Positions 1,849-64,000 of a DNA stretch of 64,000 nt are shown piece after piece; the first letter of the stretch is position 1, and every line of letters starts with the position of its first letter. The notes beneath the pieces are model-generated. The model saw only the letters and a program-made list of their open reading frames with translations, searched no databases and was not told the DNA's origin. This DNA comes from Candidatus Zixiibacteriota bacterium (GTDB lineage Bacteria; Zixibacteria; MSB-5A5; RBG-16-43-9). The position numbers and the translations under genes were made by a program. Location: assembly GCA_022865345.1 (NCBI GenBank), contig JALHSU010000194.1, positions 9,249-73,248 of the forward strand. Direction: 5' to 3'.

Positions 1849-3648
1849 TTACAGAGTCCTTCCCAGGGTTATAGTTATGAAATTGGACAAATCCTCTTTG
1901 CTTCTGCTTTCTTTCTGTGCCCGAACAGTCCAGACAAACCTGATGAAATTTGCCTGATCAGTTACATAATCTATGGAAAAGTTTAACAGATTTCTATAAA
2001 ATTTATAGGTGAAAACTTTTTTCTCCTTCCCAGTTGGCAGGTCCAGAAACAGGCTATAGTCCTTTCTGATCTCATAATTGTATCCAGAGGAGAAGATCAC
2101 GCTTTTGAAAAGTTTATGCCTGACCAAAAGTCCAAAACCCTGGGTTTTCCTTTCCCAGGAGGGTCTTCTCACCCATTCATCCTTCCACAAAAGCTGTCCA
2201 AAATCCTCAAACCGATAAAGGTAACTCAGCTCCCCTTCCAGATTTTCGCTGGCGGAGTAGTTCAAGCGGCTAAAAGTTGAAGCCCTTCTAAAAATCTTGT
2301 TCTGGTTACTCTCGGTCGCCTTCTGAAAATCATAGGAGATATAATTAGCCTGAATCTGGTATTCCTGATAAAACCTCACTTTCTGGCTTATCCTCCAGCT
2401 CAGGCCAGGCGAAAGATTATAGGTCTCGTTGTAATTGTTATTGGCTGATTTCTGGCTGGAAATATATATCTGGTGGAAGTTCTTGAAACCGGTTTTGACT
2501 TTCAAACTGAATGACCGGCTGAAGATGTGCAGGTATTCCACAGACAGTATTTTGGTAAGGACATCCCGGTCATTGAAAAAGGAACCTGGAGCGGTATAAA
2601 AGGAGGTCACGCCCATGGAAGCTGAAATAAAACCTGAGTCGGAATTGCTGAATCTTGCTGAAAACCTCCCTCCCAACTCCCCGCTTTTCATATCCTGATT
2701 TCTTTCGGATAATCCATAGTCTTCCTGCCCGGACATATATTTATAAAACCCTTCCAAGTTAGCCCTGCCGAAAAAAGTTCTGCTCAGGCTCAAAATGTAA
2801 TCTCTCGAGCTGAGGGAATTATCTCTGAGATAAAGAGGGTTGAACAGGGTATCCTCTTCAGAGACGTAGCGGTAAGTGTTCAGTTGAAAGTTATAACCGA
2901 ATTTGAGCAGGAAACCGGAGAATAAACCTCTGGATGTATCCAGTCTTAAGACTCTCTCGGTTTTTCTTTGAGTGCTCGTCTGAGAACCTTCACTGGAGAA
3001 AAAACTTTTTTTTGACCATCCTTCCTGGTACTCTAAGTTCATGGAATCTTTATCTGCTAAGTTTCTATTGAATCGAATTCTCAGGTTCCTCTCCTGACTG
3101 GGTATCCTTTCCAATTTTACCAGGCCTTGATTCAAATCCACAAAAAACTCGGCTTTTTCCCAGGAGAAGGGTCCCAGCCCCAGGGCAAGAGAATAGTTCA
3201 GTCCGGATTCTCCTCCTTTTGTCGCCTCTGATTTCCGGTTGATGGAGCTTATCCCCACATTCTGAGAAACTTTCAGCTTCTGCCAGAGATTGGTCTCGGC
3301 AGTTAAAAGATAATCCTGAGACGTGACCTTCCTTGATCCCACGGAACTTAATTTATGCTGAAGGAGGACGCCGGCTTTGAAGTCCCTTTTTAAAAGATAA
3401 TCGAATTTCACCCTCAAACCCCCATCCTCCTGCCAGCGGTCCTGGATTTCCTGTTTTATCAGAAGTGAATTCAAAGAAAACAAAAATTCCCAGTAGAAAT
3501 TCTTATCCTGATTGTAGATATATTCCAGCCGGTTGTTCCAGTTGTAAGTCTGGTTATTCCGGGAGAAATCCAGGTGCAGGTTCGAGGCATATGCGGGCTG
3601 AATCAGACAAATAATGAGGACGAGAAAACTTAAGTAAACCTTTTTCAT
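1849..3648 (-). CDS. hypothetical secreted protein, probably an outer-membrane beta-barrel
   Basis: 599 aa. N-terminal signal peptide MKKVYLSFLVLIICLIQPAYA. The sequence is rich in Y/S/N/R with alternating-hydrophobic beta-strand-like segments. It overlaps ksgA by 4 bp. Confidence 0.5.
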   Translation of the reverse strand: MKKVYLSFLVLIICLIQPAYASNLHLDFSRNNQTYNWNNRLEYIYNQDKNFYWEFLFSLNSLLIKQEIQDRWQEDGGLRVKFDYLLKRDFKAGVLLQHKLSSVGSRKVTSQDYLLTAETNLWQKLKVSQNVGISSINRKSEATKGGESGLNYSLALGLGPFSWEKAEFFVDLNQGLVKLERIPSQERNLRIRFNRNLADKDSMNLEYQEGWSKKSFFSSEGSQTSTQRKTERVLRLDTSRGLFSGFLLKFGYNFQLNTYRYVSEEDTLFNPLYLRDNSLSSRDYILSLSRTFFGRANLEGFYKYMSGQEDYGLSERNQDMKSGELGGRFSARFSNSDSGFISASMGVTSFYTAPGSFFNDRDVLTKILSVEYLHIFSRSFSLKVKTGFKNFHQIYISSQKSANNNYNETYNLSPGLSWRISQKVRFYQEYQIQANYISYDFQKATESNQNKIFRRASTFSRLNYSASENLEGELSYLYRFEDFGQLLWKDEWVRRPSWERKTQGFGLLVRHKLFKSVIFSSGYNYEIRKDYSLFLDLPTGKEKKVFTYKFYRNLLNFSIDYVTDQANFIRFVWTVRAQKESRSKEDLSNFITITLGRTL

Positions 3649-5319: not shown

Positions 5320-5437
5320 TGTATCACCCTCAAACAAGTTTGAGGGTGATACCCTATACGGGGCTGGGAGCCCCGCCTACGAGAGAAGGGATCTCTTTTT
5401 CCTTTCGTAGGTCGGGCACCCTTGCCCGACTTTTTTG
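5320..5437. repeat. array of four GC-rich hairpins, ending in a hairpin plus T-run (gtcgggcacccttgcccgac tttttt)
   Basis: tcaccctcaaac/gtttgagggtga (12-bp stem), ggggct-ggg-agcccc, cctacga...tcgtagg and gtcgggca/tgcccgac, all within an AT-rich intergenic stretch. Confidence 0.6.
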
Positions 5438-5445
5438 GAAAAAAA

Positions 5446-5489
5446 TGGAAGGCTAAAAAGTCTCAAGACCTTGAGAACTTCCGCTACAT
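5446..5489. repeat. short repeat family G, copy 1 (atggaaggc...tccgctacat), carrying an inserted gtctcaagaccttgagac hairpin
   Basis: Shares aaaaatggaaggct...tccgctacat with 43480-43506 and 61323-61350. The tctcaagaccttgag hairpin recurs at 54853. Confidence 0.5.
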
Positions 5490-5526
5490 AATAACGATCT
5501 TAAACCTGCCTAACCCTGTCATCAAG

Positions 5527-5558
5527 ACAAAAAAAGAGATGTTCTGCAGAACATCTCT
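5527..5558 (-). terminator. rho-independent terminator of metG
   Basis: Perfect hairpin agagatgttctg/cagaacatctct followed on the minus strand by TTTTTTTG, about 25 nt after the metG stop. Confidence 0.7.
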
Positions 5559-5583
5559 TTTAAAATCTCGATTTACCTGGGTC

Positions 5584-7542
5584 TTAACTTATCTTCGCCC
5601 CGGGTTTAACCTCTTTATCCACTGTTAATATGGTCAGATTTTCCCCGTCCTGAGCGGCAAGGAGCATCCCTTTTGATTCTATCCCTTTTATGCGAGCAGG
5701 TTTTAAATTGGCAAGAAGGATAATCTTCTTTCCGACCAGCTCCTCTGGCTTATAATATTCCGCAATTCCGGCGACTATTTCTCGATTTTCGTCCTCGAAT
5801 TCAACTTCAAGCTTTAAAAGCTTTTTTGCCCCTTCGACTTTTTCTGCTCCTATGACTTGAGCCACCCTTATATCCATTTTAGCGAAATCCTCAATAGTTA
5901 TTTCCATCTTCTCTTCTTTTGCAATTGAAACTTCAGATTTTTCTTTTGAGACCTCAGCCGGTTTTGCCTCTTTAAACCGAGGAAACAAGGGAACGATCTC
6001 CCGGATTTTCGTTCCGGGTTTTAAATAACCCCAGTCTTTTTCTCTTTCTAAATTCGGGATTATCTCATTTTGTGCTAACCCTAAAATCTCTCTTAACTTC
6101 TGACATTTCTCCGGCAGAGCAGGATAGAAAAGAAGACTGATAATCCTCAAGGTTTCTGCTGAGGCATAAAGAACCGTTCCCAATCGGGTTTTATCCTTTT
6201 CCTTGGCTAAATTCCAGGGAGCGGTCTTGTCCACATAGCGGTTGGTGAAGCGGACTAACTTCAGGACCTCATCAAGAGCCTGGTTGAGATTCAGCTCCTC
6301 GATTGAGTCAAAAACCACCTCGACTGTCTTCAGGGCTGAATTTTGCAGCTCCTTTTCATCCACAGAGTAATCCGAAGGCTTTGGAATCTCTCCGCGAAAA
6401 TGCTCCTTGATCAGCTTCAAAACCCGGCTGGCTAAATTGCCAAAATCGTTTGCTAAATCAGAATTATATTTCTCCTCTAATCTTTTCTCCTGAATGTCTC
6501 CATCCTGTCCGAAGGGAAAATGAGTCAAAAGGAGATAGCGGGTAGCATCACTGCCATACCTTTCTATCAGATAATAAGGGTCGATCACGTTGCCTAGAGA
6601 CTTCCCCATTTTTTGACCATTCACCGTGAAAAAACCGTGGATGAAAAGTATGTCTGGTGTTTTTTCTCCGAGCGCAATCAGCATCGCAGGCCAGTAGATG
6701 TTGTGGAATTTCAAAATGTCTTTACCTAAAAGATGTATAACTTTCCCCTCGGTCCACCATTTCTTGAATTCATCAGGATTATCCCCGTAACCGATAGCTG
6801 AAATATAATTTGGCAGAGCATCCACCCAGACATAGGTCTTCTGAGTAGTGTCGAAGGGCAAAGTTATCCCCCAGGTAACCTTTTCTCTCGAAATCGAAAA
6901 ATCCTCTAACTCCTGCTTGAAAAGCCCCAGGGTCTCTTTTTTCTTCTCCTCTGGCAAAATCCTTATTTTATCTTCTGTGATTAGTTTTTCGACCTGTGAC
7001 AGGTATGAGGAGAGCCTGAAAAAGTAGTTTTTCTCAGTTACCTTTTGCGGAGGTTTCAGATGATTGGGGCAAAGTCCGTTTACTAAATCTTTTTCGGTGA
7101 TGAATTTCTCGCAGCCCACGCAGTATAATCCAGTATATTCTCCAGGGTAAACTATCTTTTGACCTTTTTCATCTTTTGCTTGGTAAAGTATGTCCAGAAG
7201 TTTTTCAACTGCCTGAACGTGCCTTTCATCAGTGGTCCGCACGAAATAATCGAAGGATATATTCAGCTTTTCCCAGACCTCCTTGAAGCGTTGGCTATTT
7301 CTATCGCAAAACTCCTGCGGAGAGATTCCCGCCTGCTCGGCTGCCTCTGCTACCTTGCTGCCGTGCTCATCTGTTCCGGTCAAAAAGAAGGTCTCGTCCC
7401 CTTTGATGCGATGAAATCTGGTAAGGATATCAACCGCAACAGTGGGATAGGCGTGTCCGATATGCGGTTTATCGTTCACATAATATATGGGAGTGGTAAT
7501 AAAATATCTTCCTTTTTTGATCTGAGGCTTTAAGCCAGCCAA
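5584..7542 (-). CDS. metG: methionine--tRNA ligase with C-terminal tRNA-binding (EMAP/Trbp111-like) domain
   Basis: HIGH-type motif (PHIGHAY), KMSKS-type motif (KMGKSLGN) and a Zn-knuckle CxxC...CPNH. The C-terminal domain is of the ...GAEKVEGAKKLLKLEVEF... type. Confidence 0.92.
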   Translation of the reverse strand: MAGLKPQIKKGRYFITTPIYYVNDKPHIGHAYPTVAVDILTRFHRIKGDETFFLTGTDEHGSKVAEAAEQAGISPQEFCDRNSQRFKEVWEKLNISFDYFVRTTDERHVQAVEKLLDILYQAKDEKGQKIVYPGEYTGLYCVGCEKFITEKDLVNGLCPNHLKPPQKVTEKNYFFRLSSYLSQVEKLITEDKIRILPEEKKKETLGLFKQELEDFSISREKVTWGITLPFDTTQKTYVWVDALPNYISAIGYGDNPDEFKKWWTEGKVIHLLGKDILKFHNIYWPAMLIALGEKTPDILFIHGFFTVNGQKMGKSLGNVIDPYYLIERYGSDATRYLLLTHFPFGQDGDIQEKRLEEKYNSDLANDFGNLASRVLKLIKEHFRGEIPKPSDYSVDEKELQNSALKTVEVVFDSIEELNLNQALDEVLKLVRFTNRYVDKTAPWNLAKEKDKTRLGTVLYASAETLRIISLLFYPALPEKCQKLREILGLAQNEIIPNLEREKDWGYLKPGTKIREIVPLFPRFKEAKPAEVSKEKSEVSIAKEEKMEITIEDFAKMDIRVAQVIGAEKVEGAKKLLKLEVEFEDENREIVAGIAEYYKPEELVGKKIILLANLKPARIKGIESKGMLLAAQDGENLTILTVDKEVKPGAKIS

Positions 7543-13742: not shown

Positions 13743-13933
13743 GATTTTGAAAAGGTCTCACCCCGATTTAGTATAGCCCATCCCTTTGATGGGTCAACCT
13801 AAAGGTTGATACTCCAACTCAAAATATTGCTTGATAAATCAAGCGACTACAAAATACCCCTACCTGGAAAACCAAAGTCTTCCGCTACAATGTTGAAGAT
13901 TTAATTGAAATGAAGGAATGGATAGGAGAAAAC

Positions 13934-22658: not shown

Positions 22659-22732
22659 TTATCTTGCTCCTTTAATTTGATCTAACCTGATGTTCGGGTG
22701 GAGATAAACTCCACCTCTACGTGTCTTCTGTT

Positions 22733-38694: not shown

Positions 38695-38744
38695 GTAGGG
38701 GCGTTCAATCCTGCGGATCCGTTTCCCGGATTGAACGCCCCTAC
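38695..38744. repeat. perfect 17-bp inverted repeat gtaggggcgttcaatcc ... ggattgaacgcccctac (cruciform/hairpin)
   Basis: Read directly. The loop is 16 nt. Confidence 0.6.
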
Positions 38745-38790: not shown

Positions 38791-38878
38791 AAACTCATCC
38801 CCTTACCCCTTCTCTTAACAAGAGAAGGGGAACATTAGTCCCTCTCTTTTTTTAAGAGAGGGATTCAGGGTGAGCTCG
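38791..38878. repeat. Correia-like element P, copy 2 (aaactcatcccc ... agggtgagctcg)
   Basis: Hairpin A is ccccttctctt-aac-aagagaagggg (11-bp stem) and hairpin B is ccctctctt-ttttt-aagagaggg (9-bp stem). The TIRs carry 1-2 mismatches. It lies upstream of hemW. Confidence 0.7.
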
Positions 38879-38928
38879 GACTGTTAAATGGTTTACAGTC
38901 AATCGCCTTAAGGTATTCGACGCAATAA

Positions 38929-39540: not shown

Positions 39541-39651
39541 CGAACTCATCCCCTGGCCCCTTCTCCCCGCCTTTGGCGGGATCTTCGACTTACAAAGAGA
39601 AGGGGGACACAAGTCCCTCTCTTTACAAGAGAGGGATTTAGGGTGAGTTCA
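39541..39651. repeat. Correia-like element P, copy 3
   Basis: TIRs cgaactcatcccc ... agggtgagttc. Hairpin B is ccctctctt-tac-aagagaggg. The cccgcc-tttg-gcggg hairpin sits at a different position from copy 1. It lies in the 5' leader of the lipoprotein gene. Confidence 0.7.
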
Positions 39652-39711
39652 GACTGTGATATGGTTTTCCCCAGCCTACCTTTTTGACTGATAGAGCCTT
39701 GACTTTGCCTT

Positions 39712-39751: not shown

Positions 39752-39784
39752 AACAAAAAAAAGGGCGAGGAAACCTCGCCCCTA
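39752..39784 (-). terminator. rho-independent terminator of lepB
   Basis: Minus strand: gtaggggcgaggtttcctcgccc followed by TTTTTTTT, about 25 nt after the lepB stop. Confidence 0.7.
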
Positions 39785-39806
39785 CCTGTATGCTGTCTAC
39801 TGTTTG

Positions 39807-43409: not shown

Positions 43410-43437
43410 GGAAATGTAGGGGCGAACTTTGATGGTA

Positions 43438-43459
43438 GAACAGGCATTCCTGCCTGTTC
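43438..43459. repeat. hairpin family H, copy 1 (gaacagGCattccTGCctgttc)
   Basis: Homologous to 47728-47750 (aacagACattccTGTctgtt) with a compensatory double change in the stem. A third relative is at 63375-63395. Confidence 0.6.
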
Positions 43460-43479: not shown

Positions 43480-43506
43480 ATGGAAGGCTGAAGCCTTTCT
43501 CTACAA
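43480..43506. repeat. repeat family G, copy 2 (atggaaggctgaagcctttctctaca)
   Basis: Hairpin ggaaggc-tgaa-gcctt(t)c, followed by ctctaca. Confidence 0.5.
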
Positions 43507-43589
43507 TAGATTGTAGGAGCAATTCATGAATTGCCCCTACAGGATACTAAGAATTTTGGCTAATACTTATGTAAAGCTGAAACCTTTTC

Positions 43590-47164: not shown

Positions 47165-47626
47165 ATGAAATTCATCTGCGATGACAATCTAGGGAAGTTA
47201 GCCAAATGGTTGAGAACCCTGGGGTATGACACCCTTTTCAGCCAGGAGATAGAGGACACCGAGTTAGTTTCAACGGCTTTAAAGGAAGAAAGGATAATCC
47301 TGAGCCGGGACCAGCAGCTTAAACGGTTCAAATCCGCAGAGAAGAATCTTTTCCTCCTCTCTTTGAACCAGCCCCTGGAGCAGTTGAAAGAAGTTCTGAA
47401 AAAGTTCAACCTTAAACCTGAGGAAAAAAATCATTTTACCCGCTGCATTATGTGCAATACCGTATTGGTTCCGGTTCCTAAAAAAGAAGTAGAGAATAAA
47501 GTCCCGCCCTTTGTCTTCAAGACCCAGGAGAAATTCTTTTATTGTTCTAAATGCAATAAGCTCTTTTGGGCAGGAACGCATGTAAAGAATTTGAAGAAGG
47601 AAATAAGCGAACAGGGTATGCTGTAG
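47165..47626 (+). CDS. Mut7-C (DUF82) PIN-like RNase domain protein with C-terminal zinc ribbon
   Basis: N-terminal MKFICDDNLGKLAKWLR...ILSRD matches Mut7-C. C-terminal CIMCN...CSKCNKLFW is a CxxC...CxxC ribbon. Confidence 0.7.
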   Translation: MKFICDDNLGKLAKWLRTLGYDTLFSQEIEDTELVSTALKEERIILSRDQQLKRFKSAEKNLFLLSLNQPLEQLKEVLKKFNLKPEEKNHFTRCIMCNTVLVPVPKKEVENKVPPFVFKTQEKFFYCSKCNKLFWAGTHVKNLKKEISEQGML

Positions 47627-47692
47627 TTGCTCGATTCATCGAGCTTTTTTTATGTTGCGCCTGGCACTTGCCTGATAAATCAGGCAACTACA
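47623..47692. repeat. TIR-family T element, copy 3 (tgtagttgc ... gcaactaca); the Mut7-C stop codon TAG lies inside the left TIR
   Basis: Perfect 9-bp IR. Inner hairpins are gctcgat-tc-atcgagc and gcctgat-aa-atcaggc (a different sequence, same structure as cccaat-aa-attggg in copies 1 and 2). Confidence 0.65.
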
Positions 47693-47727: not shown

Positions 47728-47750
47728 AAACAGACATTCCTGTCTGTTCC
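47728..47750. repeat. hairpin family H, copy 2 (aacagACattccTGTctgtt)
   Basis: See 43438-43459. Confidence 0.6.
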
Positions 47751-47778: not shown

Positions 47779-47864
47779 CGAACTCACCCTGAATCCCTCT
47801 CTTAGAAAGAGAGGGACTAAAGCTCCCCTTCTCTTCCTAAGAGAAGGGTCAGAGGATGAGTTCG
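47779..47864. repeat. Correia-like element P, copy 4 (inverted orientation)
   Basis: cgaactcaccctgaatccc ... ggatgagttcg. Hairpins are ccctctctt-aga-aagagaggg and ccccttctctt-cct-aagagaaggg. It lies between the convergent Mut7-C and GH57 genes. Confidence 0.7.
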
Positions 47865-47983
47865 AGCAAGAACTACTTTCCCCCCCATTCTCCTGTTGGG
47901 TCAGACAAAAATGTCTGACCCACCAATCACCCTCGCCTTACCCCTCCAGTCGAGGAAGGCAATTTGTCCGATGAATCGGGCGA

Positions 47984-61190: not shown

Positions 61191-61322
61191 CCCATTTTAC
61201 TAAAGTAAACACCCCTTGTCAACAAAAAAATACGGTTAGTTTTTTTCCGTATTTTTCTCCAAACGAACAAACGCCAAACTCCAAACTTTTTATCACCTTC
61301 AGGTTTCCACATGTTTTAAATA

Positions 61323-61350
61323 AATGGAAGGCTGAAGCCTTCCGCTACAT
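61323..61350. repeat. repeat family G, copy 3 (aaatggaaggctgaagccttccgctacat)
   Basis: Perfect hairpin ggaaggc-tgaa-gccttcc followed by gctacat. Confidence 0.5.
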
Positions 61351-61411
61351 AACATCAGCTGTCGGAAGGAAGTTCCTTACTCCATAACAAATATGTGGTA
61401 ATAAGTAAATA

Positions 61412-62464
61412 TTAATGGGTTTTTTCTCTGTTTTTTAAAAACTTAATTCTTGCTTTCTCTAAGATCTCTTCAATGGTCTGTTTTGGTTTCCTTCTTTCTT
61501 CATCAAAATATTTCAGGAGCTTTGGGTTCTGCTCAACCTTCTTTGCCTCATCAGTAGGTAAATAAGCAAGTGCCAATTTCATTACTTTTGAATAAAAGGG
61601 ACCCTTTCCAATAAAATAAGGGACCTTTTCCCATTTTCCATTTTTAAATTCCCAAGTATAACGAATTGAGCCCTCTACATCATCTGCTGGCTGAATTTCA
61701 TACTCACCAACGCTAAATAATAAAGATTTATTAAATTGTTTAAGGCTAACCTTTGACCAAGGATATAATATTGTAAGTGAATAATCTGGATTAATCAAAT
61801 ATGTATTAGGGGCATTTATCTCAAAGTCTCCAGTTAGATTAAAAATATTTACAGTTTGGTTACTTCCAAATGATTCATAATCTTTTATTTTATTCAAAAT
61901 AGACAAGCCACCTACATAATTTTCTGGCTCTTTGAAAAGTCTATCATCGTAATCAAAAATAAAATATTTTTCAATTTGGTATCTCTTTGATGTACTTGTA
62001 TGAGAGTATGCGACATTCCACTTTGAAATTATTCTTGGCTCATATTTCACCCTTAATTTTTCAAAAGCCAAAAGTTGATGCTTTACTTGTTCTAATTCAA
62101 TCTCATCATTTTTCTTTAGATCCCACATACGAGTGCGTGACCCGTTATATACAACGTAATTATAATGTGGAACATCTTCGCCTTCAAATACTTCATCATC
62201 ATGAATCATAAATATTTTCTCTTGGGCCCATATGTCTTTACAGTTTACTAAACCAATATTCTTTATAACAAATTTGTATTTATTCTCCCCTGCAAAATAT
62301 CTATAGAAACATTCGATCTCTGGCTTTAACTGTTCTTTATAATGATTTAACTGTGATTTATAATTACAATATTGAAAGATATTACCGATAACCGATACCA
62401 CTAGCGTGACTAGAGGGACATAGAGTAATAACTTTACCTTGTTCTTCTTATTTTCATCTTCCAT
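61412..62464 (-). CDS. hypothetical membrane-anchored protein (AT-rich ORFan)
   Basis: 350 aa with one N-terminal TM (LLLYVPLVTLVVSVIGNIF). GC is visibly lower than flanking kdsB and ridA. No family recognised. Confidence 0.5.
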   Translation of the reverse strand: MEDENKKNKVKLLLYVPLVTLVVSVIGNIFQYCNYKSQLNHYKEQLKPEIECFYRYFAGENKYKFVIKNIGLVNCKDIWAQEKIFMIHDDEVFEGEDVPHYNYVVYNGSRTRMWDLKKNDEIELEQVKHQLLAFEKLRVKYEPRIISKWNVAYSHTSTSKRYQIEKYFIFDYDDRLFKEPENYVGGLSILNKIKDYESFGSNQTVNIFNLTGDFEINAPNTYLINPDYSLTILYPWSKVSLKQFNKSLLFSVGEYEIQPADDVEGSIRYTWEFKNGKWEKVPYFIGKGPFYSKVMKLALAYLPTDEAKKVEQNPKLLKYFDEERRKPKQTIEEILEKARIKFLKNREKTH

Positions 62465-62622
62465 AAGACATTAAAAAAAGAGATTGTACTGAATTAACAA
62501 AATGATTATTTTTTACCTGCATCAAATTAAAGATATTGTCAAGAATTAAACAAGGAAAAAATTAAAGCATCTACACATTGAGTTTTCCGCAAAACTAAAA
62601 GCCTTGCCCTACGAATTTTATT

Positions 62623-63015
62623 TTAAATCACCGCCACTGCATCTATCTCTATTTTCGCGCCTTTGGGTAAATCTGCGGCGGCGATGGTGGTTCTGGTTGG
62701 TGGGTTTTGTTTGAAATAACCAGCATAGACCTCATTCATCAAAGAAAAATCCTTCATATCCTTCAGATAAACCGTGGTCTTAATAACTTTAGTCAAATCT
62801 GAGCCAGCACCTTCTAAAACCGCTTTGAGATTTTCTAAAACCTGTTTGGTCTCCTGTTTTATATCCCCTGAGACCATCTCTCCGGTTTTGGGGTCTAAAG
62901 GTATCTGCCCGGAGGTGAAGACAAGACCTAAATTTTCAAGCTTTATCCCCTGGCTATAAGGACCGATAGCTTTGGGTGCTTTTTCAGACTGGATTATTTT
63001 TACTGGACTAGACAT
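62623..63015 (-). CDS. ridA: RidA/YjgF-family reactive-intermediate deaminase
   Basis: ...[30 protein letters not shown]... and ...[11 protein letters not shown]... Start taken at ATG 63015, preceded by SD AAGGAG (the track ORF starts 20 codons earlier). Confidence 0.85.
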
Positions 63016-63075
63016 TTTTTCTCCTTTTGTTTGGTTGTGTTTCGTCAATAAAATAAATTCGGACTTAGCTGTCAA

Positions 63076-63491
63076 TCTTTATTCCCTCCTTTGGGGCAAG
63101 GCGAAAATCCCAATCTTTTGTAGGGACAGGGCTTGTCCCTGTCCGACTTCAATACCGATAAACTCCACCCACTCCTCACAGGGCGGAGTTAAACTCCGCC
63201 CCTACGCGGACTTGATTTCATAACCTCTGACAGAAACGTCGGACGCTACGGAATCTTTCCCCTCCCTTGATGGGAGGGGACAGGGGAGGGTGACCCCCTC
63301 TCCCTAACCCTCTCCCACCAGGGGAGAGGGGATTTTTATGCATCGTCACGGACGATGCACTCCATATCAATTATGAACAGACAGGATGCCTGTTCACCTA
63401 CATCTGATAAAAAAACTTCGGGGCTGGGAGAGAAAATTCCCAGCCCCGGGAGGGGAGCTGATGGGCAAAAGAGTTTCAGTCTTTATATCTA
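63076..63491. repeat. ~415-bp non-coding array of at least seven distinct GC-rich perfect hairpins
   Basis: ggacaggg/ccctgtcc; gggcggagtt/aactccgccc; cccctccc/gggagggg; ccctctcc.../ggggagaggg; tgcatcgtc/gacgatgca; gaacag/ctgttc (family H relative); ggggctggga/tcccagcccc. No ORF of 60 aa or more. Confidence 0.65.
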
Positions 63492-64000
63492 TTAGGGCGA
63501 ACCGTAACTTTTCACCATAAACAGAATGCTCTGCAAGGCACCGCTGATATTGGATAGAATCTTGGAATATCTTTTCAAAAGCTCGCTGTACTGCCAGCGA
63601 ATGGAGAAAGCTTTTTCCGGGAACTCGAAAAGGTCTAAAAGGGTTTTCTTGTAGATCTCATCCGCATATTTCAGAACAAAATAAGGATACTCGGAGATAT
63701 TCGGATCCTGGATCTCATTTCTAGATAATCTCTCTTTGTATATCTCAATTTTCTCCAGAATAACCGTGCCGAAACACCAGGGAGACATTATCACTCTTAA
63801 ATCCGAAGAATCCCCATAATAGGAGTAGAGATATCTCAACACCTGGTCAACCAGTAATTTCTTTGCCCGGTAGTAGGACAGACACTCGGTTTTTTTCGAA
63901 TCACACTGGATAATCTTTTTCTCTAAATCTTTTTTCTCCTCCAGGCACCTGGCTTCTGCCCTTTCTAAAAAAAGGTAATAATCCTCAAAATAGACCTTGA
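63492..64000 (-). CDS. hypothetical protein (partial; N-terminus beyond the window end)
   Basis: The track ORF 63492..63842 starts at a TTG. The same frame stays open upstream to position 64000 (...KVYFEDYYLFLERAEARCLEEKKDLEKK...), so the gene continues off the window. Confidence 0.5.
   Translation of the reverse strand, partial: KVYFEDYYLFLERAEARCLEEKKDLEKKIIQCDSKKTECLSYYRAKKLLVDQVLRYLYSYYGDSSDLRVIMSPWCFGTVILEKIEIYKERLSRNEIQDPNISEYPYFVLKYADEIYKKTLLDLFEFPEKAFSIRWQYSELLKRYSKILSNISGALQSILFMVKSYGSP

Follow-up and report, generated by a model that had tools for sequence, protein, structure and literature searches.

Repetitive extragenic palindromic (REP) elements of the GTAG superfamily are short units (20-40 bp) in which a stem of 6-13 bp closes a short loop and one end carries an unpaired GTAG tetranucleotide (PMC3733652). 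They are extragenic, and are found as head-head (HH) or tail-tail (TT) dimers 20-100 bp apart, as heterodimers and in clusters (PMC3733652, Di Nocera, De Gregorio & Rocco 2013, BMC Genomics 14:522). Subclass 2.4 of the TnpA_REP proteins (Bertels group 4), which are around 194 aa long and have NH[IFV]H, WQ and YIxNNP motifs (PMC6006769), is linked to REPs of two types, 'canonical long' (foot with G-C pairs) and 'double-foot', and in-frame REPs are a hallmark of the group (PMC6006769). In enterobacteria, documented effects of REPs include stabilisation of upstream mRNA and termination of transcription, and the elements bind integration host factor (IHF) or gyrase (PMC3733652, PMC2817692). Here we describe an array of hairpins at positions 63076-63491 of a 64-kb stretch of DNA (the window) from a Candidatus Zixiibacteriota bacterium, upstream of the ridA gene, which is very probably a non-coding spacer colonised by REPs and bounded by a terminator and a promoter block that are both conserved.

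The spacer separates two co-directional genes on the minus strand: ridA, with its ATG at 63015 (Pfam Ribonuc_L-PSP, 1e-41), and an upstream conserved hypothetical open reading frame (ORF), the stop codon of which is at 63492. An original prediction, made from the sequence alone, had described this region as an ORF-free, GC-rich array of at least seven hairpins in an AT-rich genome, with a smaller sibling at 5320-5437, and had offered a structured non-coding RNA (ncRNA), a cluster of REP-like elements or a recombination hot-spot as explanations. The array itself is confirmed. All four of the stems quoted are in place, and the count was a fair one, as there are six independent perfect stems of at least 8 bp and one 10-bp stem with a single mismatch. 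The guanine-plus-cytosine (GC) content is raised, at 51.9% against 42.8% for the window, and lies in the top 0.8% of 416-nt windows, but the terms 'far above' and 'AT-rich genome' were somewhat overstated. The gene calls were correct, for ridA by Pfam and for metG and tatD on either side of the sibling cluster, and the only ORFs to overlap the spacer are short ones of 35-83 aa, which run through the palindromes and are not conserved in sequence among relatives.

The minimum free energy (MFE) of the minus strand of 63076-63491 is -200.1 kcal/mol, against -140 +/- 6 in dinucleotide shuffles (z -9.9), and that of the plus strand is -182.6 kcal/mol, against -132 +/- 5 (z -9.4); in neither case did any of the 100 shuffles match the real value. 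Such a low folding energy (z of about -9.9), and a minus-strand fold 17 kcal/mol more stable than that of the plus strand, might favour one highly structured ncRNA (a small RNA, a ridA leader or a riboswitch-like element) with the hairpins as its functional domains. However, the z-scores are the same on both strands, as is expected for DNA palindromes. Nor is there a matching RNA family: the window contains no Rfam match at the gathering threshold, and at E<=10 both clusters give spurious microRNA-like matches only, the best of which, to eukaryotic microRNA models, fall on the G/C palindromes and reach 33.7 bits where the cut-off is 60.

The inner ~330 nt of the spacer consist of three canonical GTAG REPs, one pair of which forms an HH heterodimer whilst the third is single, together with two or more decayed REPs and with untagged palindromes belonging to other small dispersed families (Table 1). 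In all units of 63120-63448 and of the sibling at 5321-5430 the stem measures 7-11 bp and the loop 1-9 nt. The likeness to the GTAG REP superfamily (PMC3733652) extends to the GTAG foot, to G/C-rich stems of 7-10 bp with short loops, to dimers with 26-36 bp between their units, to the coexistence in one genome of several subfamilies that differ by complementary changes in the stem, and to the position of the units between unidirectional genes and 3' of ORFs. Judged by the anatomy of foot and stem, in which GTAG is often followed by GGG, these elements would fit the REP types of subclass 2.4 (PMC6006769, Quentin et al. 2018, BMC Genomics 19:475), with both GTAG-GGGC... 'canonical long' and 'double-foot' forms, and share with them a patchy distribution across phyla.

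Table 1. Features of the ridA spacer, of the metG-tatD cluster and of further REP loci in the window
Feature	Position	Strand	GT[AG]G foot	Composition
Predicted intrinsic terminator of upstream gene	63409-63448	-	absent	11-bp stem CGGGGCTGGGA/TCCCAGCCCCG at 63419-63448, also read as (C)GGGGCTGGGA/TCCCAGCCCC(G); 8-nt loop; AAG; T7 (63409-63415)
GTAG-tagged REP 'a'	63374-63401	-	present	GTAGG-TGAACAGGCA-TCC-TGTCTGTTCA; 10-bp stem with one G.T pair; imperfect stem TGAACAGACA/TGCCTGTTCA at 63374-63396
Untagged palindrome of a small dispersed family	63339-63359		absent	TGCATCGTC-ACG-GACGATGCA
G/C-rich palindrome complex	63255-63335		absent (both hairpins)	hairpin TCCCCTCCC/GGGAGGGGA at 63258-63280, with stem CCCCTCCC/GGGAGGGG at 63259-63279; hairpin CCCTCTCCC/GGGAGAGGG at 63308-63330, alternative CCCCTCTCCC/GGGAGAGGGG at 63295-63331; GGGGAGGGTGA linker
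Probable REP remnant	63237-63249	-		GTAGCGTCCGACG; GTAG tag; 4-bp CGTC/GACG stem only; weak; unconserved in relatives
GTAG-tagged REP 'b'	63181-63205	-	present	GTAG-GGGCGGAGTT-T-AACTCCGCCC; perfect 10-bp stem at 63181-63201, three G-C pairs at foot
GTAG-tagged REP 'c'	63120-63144	+	present	GTAG-GGACAGGG-CTTGT-CCCTGTCC; stem at 63124-63144
Decayed REP	63083-63117	-		homologous to gtagTCCCACCTTGccctCAAGGTGGGA of relatives; tag and most of stem gone
ridA promoter-like block and ribosome-binding site	63016-63075	-		TTGACA at 63070-63075, 17 nt, TTTATT at 63047-63052; AAGGAG at 63020-63026
15-bp perfect palindrome	5321-5352			GTATCACCCTCAAAC-AA-GTTTGAGGGTGATAC; 'double-foot'-like but GTAT/ATAC ends
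TT REP dimer, tags inside	5359-5430			26-bp spacer between units
Dimer unit 1	5359-5380	-	present	CGGGGCT-GGG-AGCCCCG-CCTAC
Dimer unit 2	5407-5430	+	present	GTAG-GTCGGGCA-CCCT-TGCCCGAC, then T6
GTAGCGGAAGGCTTCAGCCTTCC REP subfamily variant	5445-5491	-		nested hairpin TCTCAAG/CTTGAGA in loop
metG terminator-like 14-bp palindrome	5532-5561	-		A/T runs on each side
Two tandem REPs just 3' of uvrA	31067-31123	-		GTAGGGGCGAGGTTTCCTCGCCC, GTATGGACAGAACATCGTTCTGTCC, then T-rich sequence
'Double-foot' REP, GTAG...CTAC	38695-38744			GTAGGGGCGTTCAATCC...GGATTGAACGCCCCTAC
Second 'double-foot' REP, GTAG...CTAC	43513-43540			

A census of perfect hairpins (stem of at least 7 bp, loop of at most 10 nt) over the whole window, in which a hairpin was scored as tagged if GTAG lay within 3 nt of its foot, found 48 in the 8.55 kb of intergenic DNA and 44 in the 55.4 kb of coding DNA. 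The tag was present on 18 of the 48 intergenic hairpins and on none of the 44 coding ones (Fisher p = 1.4e-6), and tagging exceeds the background density of GTAG with a binomial probability of ~4e-18. When one mismatch was allowed there were about 20 tagged intergenic hairpins (intergenic DNA being 13% of the window), and these fall into recurring subfamilies: GTAGGGGCGAGGTTTCCTCGCCC, present twice in the window; GTAGTYGC..GATTTATC..GC, with five copies related by compensatory changes in the stem; GTAGCGGAAGGCTTCAGCCTTCC, with three to four copies in the window; GTAG(G)AACAGRCA, with three; and the 'double-foot' forms at 38695-38744 and 43513-43540. Canonical copies of GTAGCGGAAGGCTTCAGCCTTCC lie at 61326-61348, 43482-43504 and 13866-13888, and in contigs L126, L128, L129, L130 and L133.

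A RidA-based scan of metagenome contigs identified 14 close relatives, with RidA 83-95% identical to that of the window. The original prediction had proposed that a REP family would recur, and most of the hairpin types were indeed found at other loci of the window and these relatives; in a mismatch-tolerant search, nearly every type in both clusters has related copies elsewhere, some with compensatory changes. The same subfamilies occupy both orthologous and non-orthologous sites in the window and the relatives, and the density near ridA reaches 4.6 tagged hairpins per kb.

Seven of the 14 relatives keep the upstream ORF, ridA and kdsB in synteny, and the protein fragment encoded by the ORF in the window (168 aa) is 82-100% identical in them. 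The orthologous spacers, which measure 410, ~435, 476, 484, 642, 672 and 703 nt, were compared with that of the window in an eight-way alignment. Invariant across it are only the terminator core with its T-run, the promoter-like block and the ribosome-binding site (RBS). The interior is a presence/absence mosaic, each hairpin being present in some relatives and missing or replaced in others, with the gaps filled by other GTAG hairpins such as GTAGGGACAGAACATCGTTCTGTCC, a unit found 3' of uvrA in the window. Every relative retains some cluster of hairpins in the spacer, and the members differ.

This turnover can be followed for each unit. REP 'a' is shared with L125, L127 and L131, but not with L128 or L129, and has related copies at 43435-43459 and 47729-47748 of the window. 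REP 'b', a spare copy of one arm of which (TAAACTCCACCC) lies at 63159-63170, is missing from this position in all seven aligned syntenic relatives; its closest other copy is at 22697-22720 of the window (86%). REP 'c', which with 'b' makes up the HH heterodimer (tags outward, 36-bp spacer), is identical in L125 and L127, where it is accompanied by a similar 19-nt spacer, GTTTATYRGTATTGRAGTC; in L131 its placement relative to the promoter block is reversed, and 23 of its 25 positions match in an Anaerolineales metagenome-assembled genome (MAG), L042. The G/C-rich complex, which includes a CCCTCYCCC-type sequence, is complete in the window, lacks a 13-nt GGGAGAGGG unit in L129 and is reduced to half in L131, whilst in L125 and L127 it is replaced by a GTAG-tagged REP of the same stem type, GTAGGGGAGGGGCTTGTCCCCTCCC. 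Intact tagged copies of the gtagTCCCACCTTGccctCAAGGTGGGA type, the decayed REP of the window, are found in L125, L129 and L131. The TGCATCGTC hairpin has orthologues in L129 and L131 and none in L125, L127 or L128; other copies of this family, with compensatory changes, lie 3' of ridA in L128, L129, L136 and L137.

These comparisons bear directly on the ncRNA. The proposed check for conservation of the stems between orthologous spacers gives a negative answer, since the inner ones form a mosaic, and the substitutions in hairpins shared at this locus break pairs, being non-compensated in the TGCATCGTC hairpin of L129 and L131 and occurring also in REP 'a' of L003. The interior is thus unconserved despite a flanking protein that is 82-100% identical. 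In L128 and L131, REPs are located between the promoter block and the RBS, where they would be transcribed; in the window, however, the array starts with the conserved terminator of the upstream gene, and the conserved ridA promoter block comes only downstream of it, therefore most of the array is expected to be untranscribed. An ncRNA, for which the Rfam look-alikes on the G/C complex are all sub-threshold and the folding is symmetrical between strands, is consequently a very improbable explanation, and of the candidates originally put forward it is the REP-like cluster that is upheld, by the GTAG foot on three hairpins here and two in the sibling, by the contrast of 18/48 with 0/44, by recurrence and by turnover. 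In the case of L128, the REP between promoter block and RBS has a nested hairpin and would form part of the ridA 5' untranslated region; at around 3700-4000 of L131, the TTGACA-N17-TTTATT block is duplicated, and a REP cluster separates its copies.

The functional parts of the neighbouring genes are confined to the two ends, 63409-63448 and 63016-63075. The GGGGCTGGGA hairpin had been listed as a mere member of the array; it is present, but is better described as the upstream gene's intrinsic terminator, which is conserved. In the terminator scan its 11-bp stem has nine G-C pairs, lies 44 nt past the stop codon and carries no GTAG tag, and the stem core GGGCTGGGA/TCCCAGCCC and T-run are kept in all eight aligned sequences, with loops that differ. 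On the strength of this stem, T-run and conservation, 63409-63448 is predicted to be a Rho-independent terminator. At the other end, TTGACA-N17-...AATTTATTTTATT and AAGGAG are likewise invariant in eight of eight, and are found too in L126, L130, L132 and L133. An E. coli-style promoter scan did not call the block; from its conservation and position we infer that 63047-63075 functions as the ridA promoter.

The hairpins might alternatively be kept for a job in the host, either as an insulator or stack of back-up terminators that also blocks 3'-exonucleases, or as sites for nucleoid proteins or gyrase. The terminator scan made several terminator-like calls on the minus strand of the region, and one on the plus strand, and the retention of a cluster of some sort in every relative would also be in keeping with such a role; yet a good, conserved terminator is already present ahead of the array, and the members, number, order and orientation of the hairpins are all unconserved. 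The region, in which the longest direct repeat is 13 nt, yielded neither a repeated linker nor an IHF-like motif. A further indication of a role comes from the two REPs adjoining uvrA, the second of which is followed by a T-run. Relative to L016 (2421-2477) they are near-invariant, with four differences in 62 nt, amid scrambled flanking intergenic DNA and beside a uvrA that is 88% identical; the GTAT foot in the window is GTAG in L016, and the first is repeated exactly at 39763-39785 of the window. These REPs probably double as the uvrA terminator. As an explanation of the ridA spacer in its own right a host function is distinctly unlikely, although it is plausible as a layer of selection added to REP colonisation. 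L016 is labelled 'Acidobacteriota', but is a chimeric contig in which the GC content changes from ~44% to ~65% at about position 3000; the match to the window (88% identity) is confined to the low-GC part, therefore its taxonomic label is not applicable to the window lineage.

Two of the five canonical G-quadruplex motifs in the window fall in the G/C-rich complex, on opposite strands (63272-63290, plus; 63294-63316, minus), and one of this adjoining pair has TTA loops (GGGAGAGGGTTAGGGAGAGGGGG). It is conceivable that the core at 63255-63335 is a G-quadruplex/i-motif switch rather than a set of hairpins, but two G-tracts of the minus-strand motif are lost in L129, that on the plus strand is missing from L131, L125, L127 and L128, and the same runs pair perfectly as hairpins; we consider this extremely improbable.

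Comparison with better-known arrangements of REPs sets the cluster apart. As in the bacterial interspersed mosaic elements (BIMEs) of E. coli, several REPs in alternating orientation share one spacer between a terminator and the next gene; unlike them, there is no regular alternation of two types, the linkers are not conserved and the spacing is irregular. The BIME array suggested in the original prediction is not supported in its E. coli form, as the units all differ, the spacers are heterogeneous and no linker is repeated. A tandem array, or one resembling CRISPR, was rejected because 63076-63491 has no regular period and no direct repeat longer than 13 nt. The inverted pair of REPs with a short spacer also recalls the REP doublets (REPINs) of Pseudomonas (Bertels & Rainey 2011). 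Dimers in L125, L127 and L131 have the same right unit and 19-nt spacer as the one at 63120-63205, in the last case at another position, a hint that the dimer may be mobile as a whole. However, the arms at 63120-63134 and 63191-63205 differ (73% complementary over 15 nt), making a long REPIN hairpin impossible, and the cluster is REPIN-like at best ambiguously.

The sibling cluster between metG and tatD is real, and the 12-mer CGGGGCTGGGAG is common to it and to 63419-63430. It is a REP cluster of the same kind, in a layout matching that of ridA: gene stop, terminator or terminator-like palindrome, REPs, next gene (in this case tatD). The palindrome at 5321-5352 has a related copy with a GTGG end at a non-orthologous site (L132, 2609), and the dimer at 5359-5430 has a relative with compensatory stem changes at L131 2448.

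REPs of this type are regarded as non-autonomous elements, which in this lineage would, by analogy, be nicked and rejoined by a TnpA_REP/RAYT (REP-associated tyrosine transposase) protein of the HUH/Y1 class. A scan of GTDB genomes with the pattern GTAGGGGCGAGGNNNCCTCGCCC returned at least 120 stretches, and the matches listed come from Poribacteria, Chloroflexi, cyanobacteria, Zixibacteria, Nitrospirae and others, with identical 23-nt units in MAGs whose labels span more than 10 phyla or candidate divisions. Among these listed matches, the REP-bearing loci contain 173 distinct GTAG hairpins, and GTAG is 5-25 times commoner than four of the six other tetranucleotides of the same bases; the remaining two, TAGG and GGTA, overlap the GTAGG foot and occur 284 and 59 times, against 320 for GTAG. 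Identity of a 23-mer across phyla was considered as evidence for one element, and downgraded: given GTAGGGGC and the palindrome, about four stem bases are free, and with 173 distinct hairpins many matches are therefore expected within the superfamily. Unbiased clustering of ORFs across the 120 REP-bearing loci, aimed at a co-occurring protein, revealed only large generic families, such as ABC/UvrA-type ATPases.

Probing the listed matches with E. coli RayT revealed RAYT-like ORFs in three loci, L114, L064 and L089. The first is a Zixibacteria chromosome carrying a REP identical to the 23-nt unit at 31101-31123 of the window. Its minus strand encodes, at 6560-7156, a 198-aa HUH/Y protein with the motifs MPNHIHG, WQRNY and YIQTNP, for which the best NCBIfam match is REP_Tyr_transpos (E 1.7e-13), and the gene contains an in-frame HH REP dimer whose second half is identical to 31101-31123. 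The other two loci are Poribacteria with the same REP, and L064 also encodes a bona fide RAYT (117.8 bits). The L114 gene sits between nuoD and nuoE, and the RAYT-like genes of L064 and L089 lie at 606-1163 and ~840-1544. In each the in-frame GTAG REPs are placed between the HUH and Tyr motifs, as one HH dimer in L114, two units in L064 and three tandem units in L089. These insertions were considered as a novelty, but have already been described for subclass 2.4 (PMC6006769).

Several points weigh against interpreting the spacer as a product of such a system. About half of the hairpins in the region have no GTAG tag, and are REP-like only loosely; the stems are unusually heterogeneous in this lineage and look more so than in most families of the 2013 survey, and the copy counts cover the 64-kb window and the relatives. 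The association of the window REPs with a transposase would be by analogy. No RAYT was found in the window, either by profile scans of 10 ORFs or by tblastn with E. coli RayT, which is also a difference from subclass 2.4. The L114 protein falls below the curated cut-offs (50.7 against 80 bits; 18.5 against 23 for Pfam), in part because the insert splits the domain. Lastly, the conserved REPs of uvrA show that some units are constrained, probably as terminators, and the same may apply to some in the ridA spacer.

In colonisation of the spacer by REPs, TnpA_REP would recognise the GTAG foot and hairpin on single-stranded DNA at the replication fork, again by analogy with described systems. Copies could then pile up in the ridA spacer because insertion between terminator and promoter is, we infer, harmless; units would be gained, lost, duplicated by slippage and decayed by mutation, giving a mosaic that varies between lineages. 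Effects on the cell, such as extra stops to transcription, protection of mRNA 3' ends or bending of DNA, would be by-products. The REP population of this lineage is unusually diverse: dozens of different stems resemble one another in palindromic shape and GTAG(GGG) foot alone, and copies differ by compensatory changes. Provided that this pattern and the 23-nt identities across phyla are more than coincidence in so large a superfamily, it is a doubtful but not negligible extension of the mechanism that a single subclass-2.4 system, spreading horizontally, reads structure and foot rather than sequence, with spacers of the type flanking ridA acting as 'nurseries' in which REP variants originate and are exchanged.

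For annotation, 'REP cluster, with terminator and promoter' is the appropriate label for 63076-63491, rather than 'candidate ncRNA', and the short ORFs running through the palindromes should not be called genes. The element type is already known and the host lineage, which was not in the 2013 survey, is new; the locus opens no new question, but adds an uncultured lineage to the hosts of subclass-2.4-type GTAG REPs and offers a clear-cut natural case in which REPs turn over while the terminator and promoter on either side stay fixed. The repeats also explain why metagenome assemblies break beside ridA in this lineage. Five metagenome contigs break inside these repeats, and of those starting at REP 'c', L002 does so on its first base and L001 two bases earlier. 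Contigs retrieved by exact-protein look-ups with RidA and its neighbour were short and near-identical; one spans the spacer, with three single nucleotide polymorphisms.

The other flank of ridA is variable as well. The slot between ridA and kdsB (61191-62622) is an island of 0.9-2.8 kb, dense in GTAG REPs, which in the window contains a 350-aa ORF (61412-62464) without a Pfam match, in DNA of 29-34% GC; a scan of the metagenome contigs with this neighbour of RidA gave no matches, and the gene is absent from all the relatives. In L128 the slot encodes a NucS-like endonuclease, and in L131 an outer-membrane beta-barrel protein. Because both flanks of ridA vary among relatives, the recombination hot-spot of the original prediction is compatible with the data as a consequence, and would be conjectural as a function. 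A decayed REP, GTAGGGCAAGGCTTTTAGTTTTGC, lies just 3' of the ridA stop codon at 62590-62622, and has an intact counterpart, GTAGGGCAAGGCTTTTAGCCTTGC, at the same place in L126, L132 and L133.

GTAG REPs are also located at and just past the 3' end of a Mut7-C/PIN-like ribonuclease gene (47623-47644 and 47668-47691). This gene, at 47165-47626 on the plus strand (Pfam 1.7e-48), is one of the few on that strand and follows a spacer of 33% GC. In the Poribacteria MAG L028 (3946-4276), a GTAGGGGCGAGG REP forms part of a 142-bp tandem unit present in 2.3 copies with 94% identity, which holds further palindromes (GGGTTGGGGAACCCAACC).

The window contains a second type of dispersed repeat, resembling miniature inverted-repeat transposable elements (MITEs). 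Its four copies of ~90-110 nt, at 30752-30860, 38793-38880, 39541-39652 and, in reverse, 47779-47865, are bounded by terminal inverted repeats (GAACTCAYCCC...GGGRTGAGTTC) and contain the inner hairpins CCCCTTCTCTT/AAGAGAAGGGG and TCCCTCTCTT/AAGAGAGGGA; two of them have extra nested hairpins. The G/C-rich complex of the ridA spacer was considered as a member of this family, but has no significant similarity to it and was treated as a separate family. A further copy of the MITE-like element is found in the Zixibacteria contig L120 (984-1062), which, with the match of 88% to the low-GC part of L016, slightly favours a Zixibacteria-related host. The copy at 30752-30860 is missing in L016, and follows a decayed duplicate of the first nine codons of the downstream kinase-like gene. 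Ahead of that at 39541-39652 lies a promoter-like segment of ~100 nt that is homologous, which suggests that the two form a larger unit of ~210 nt.

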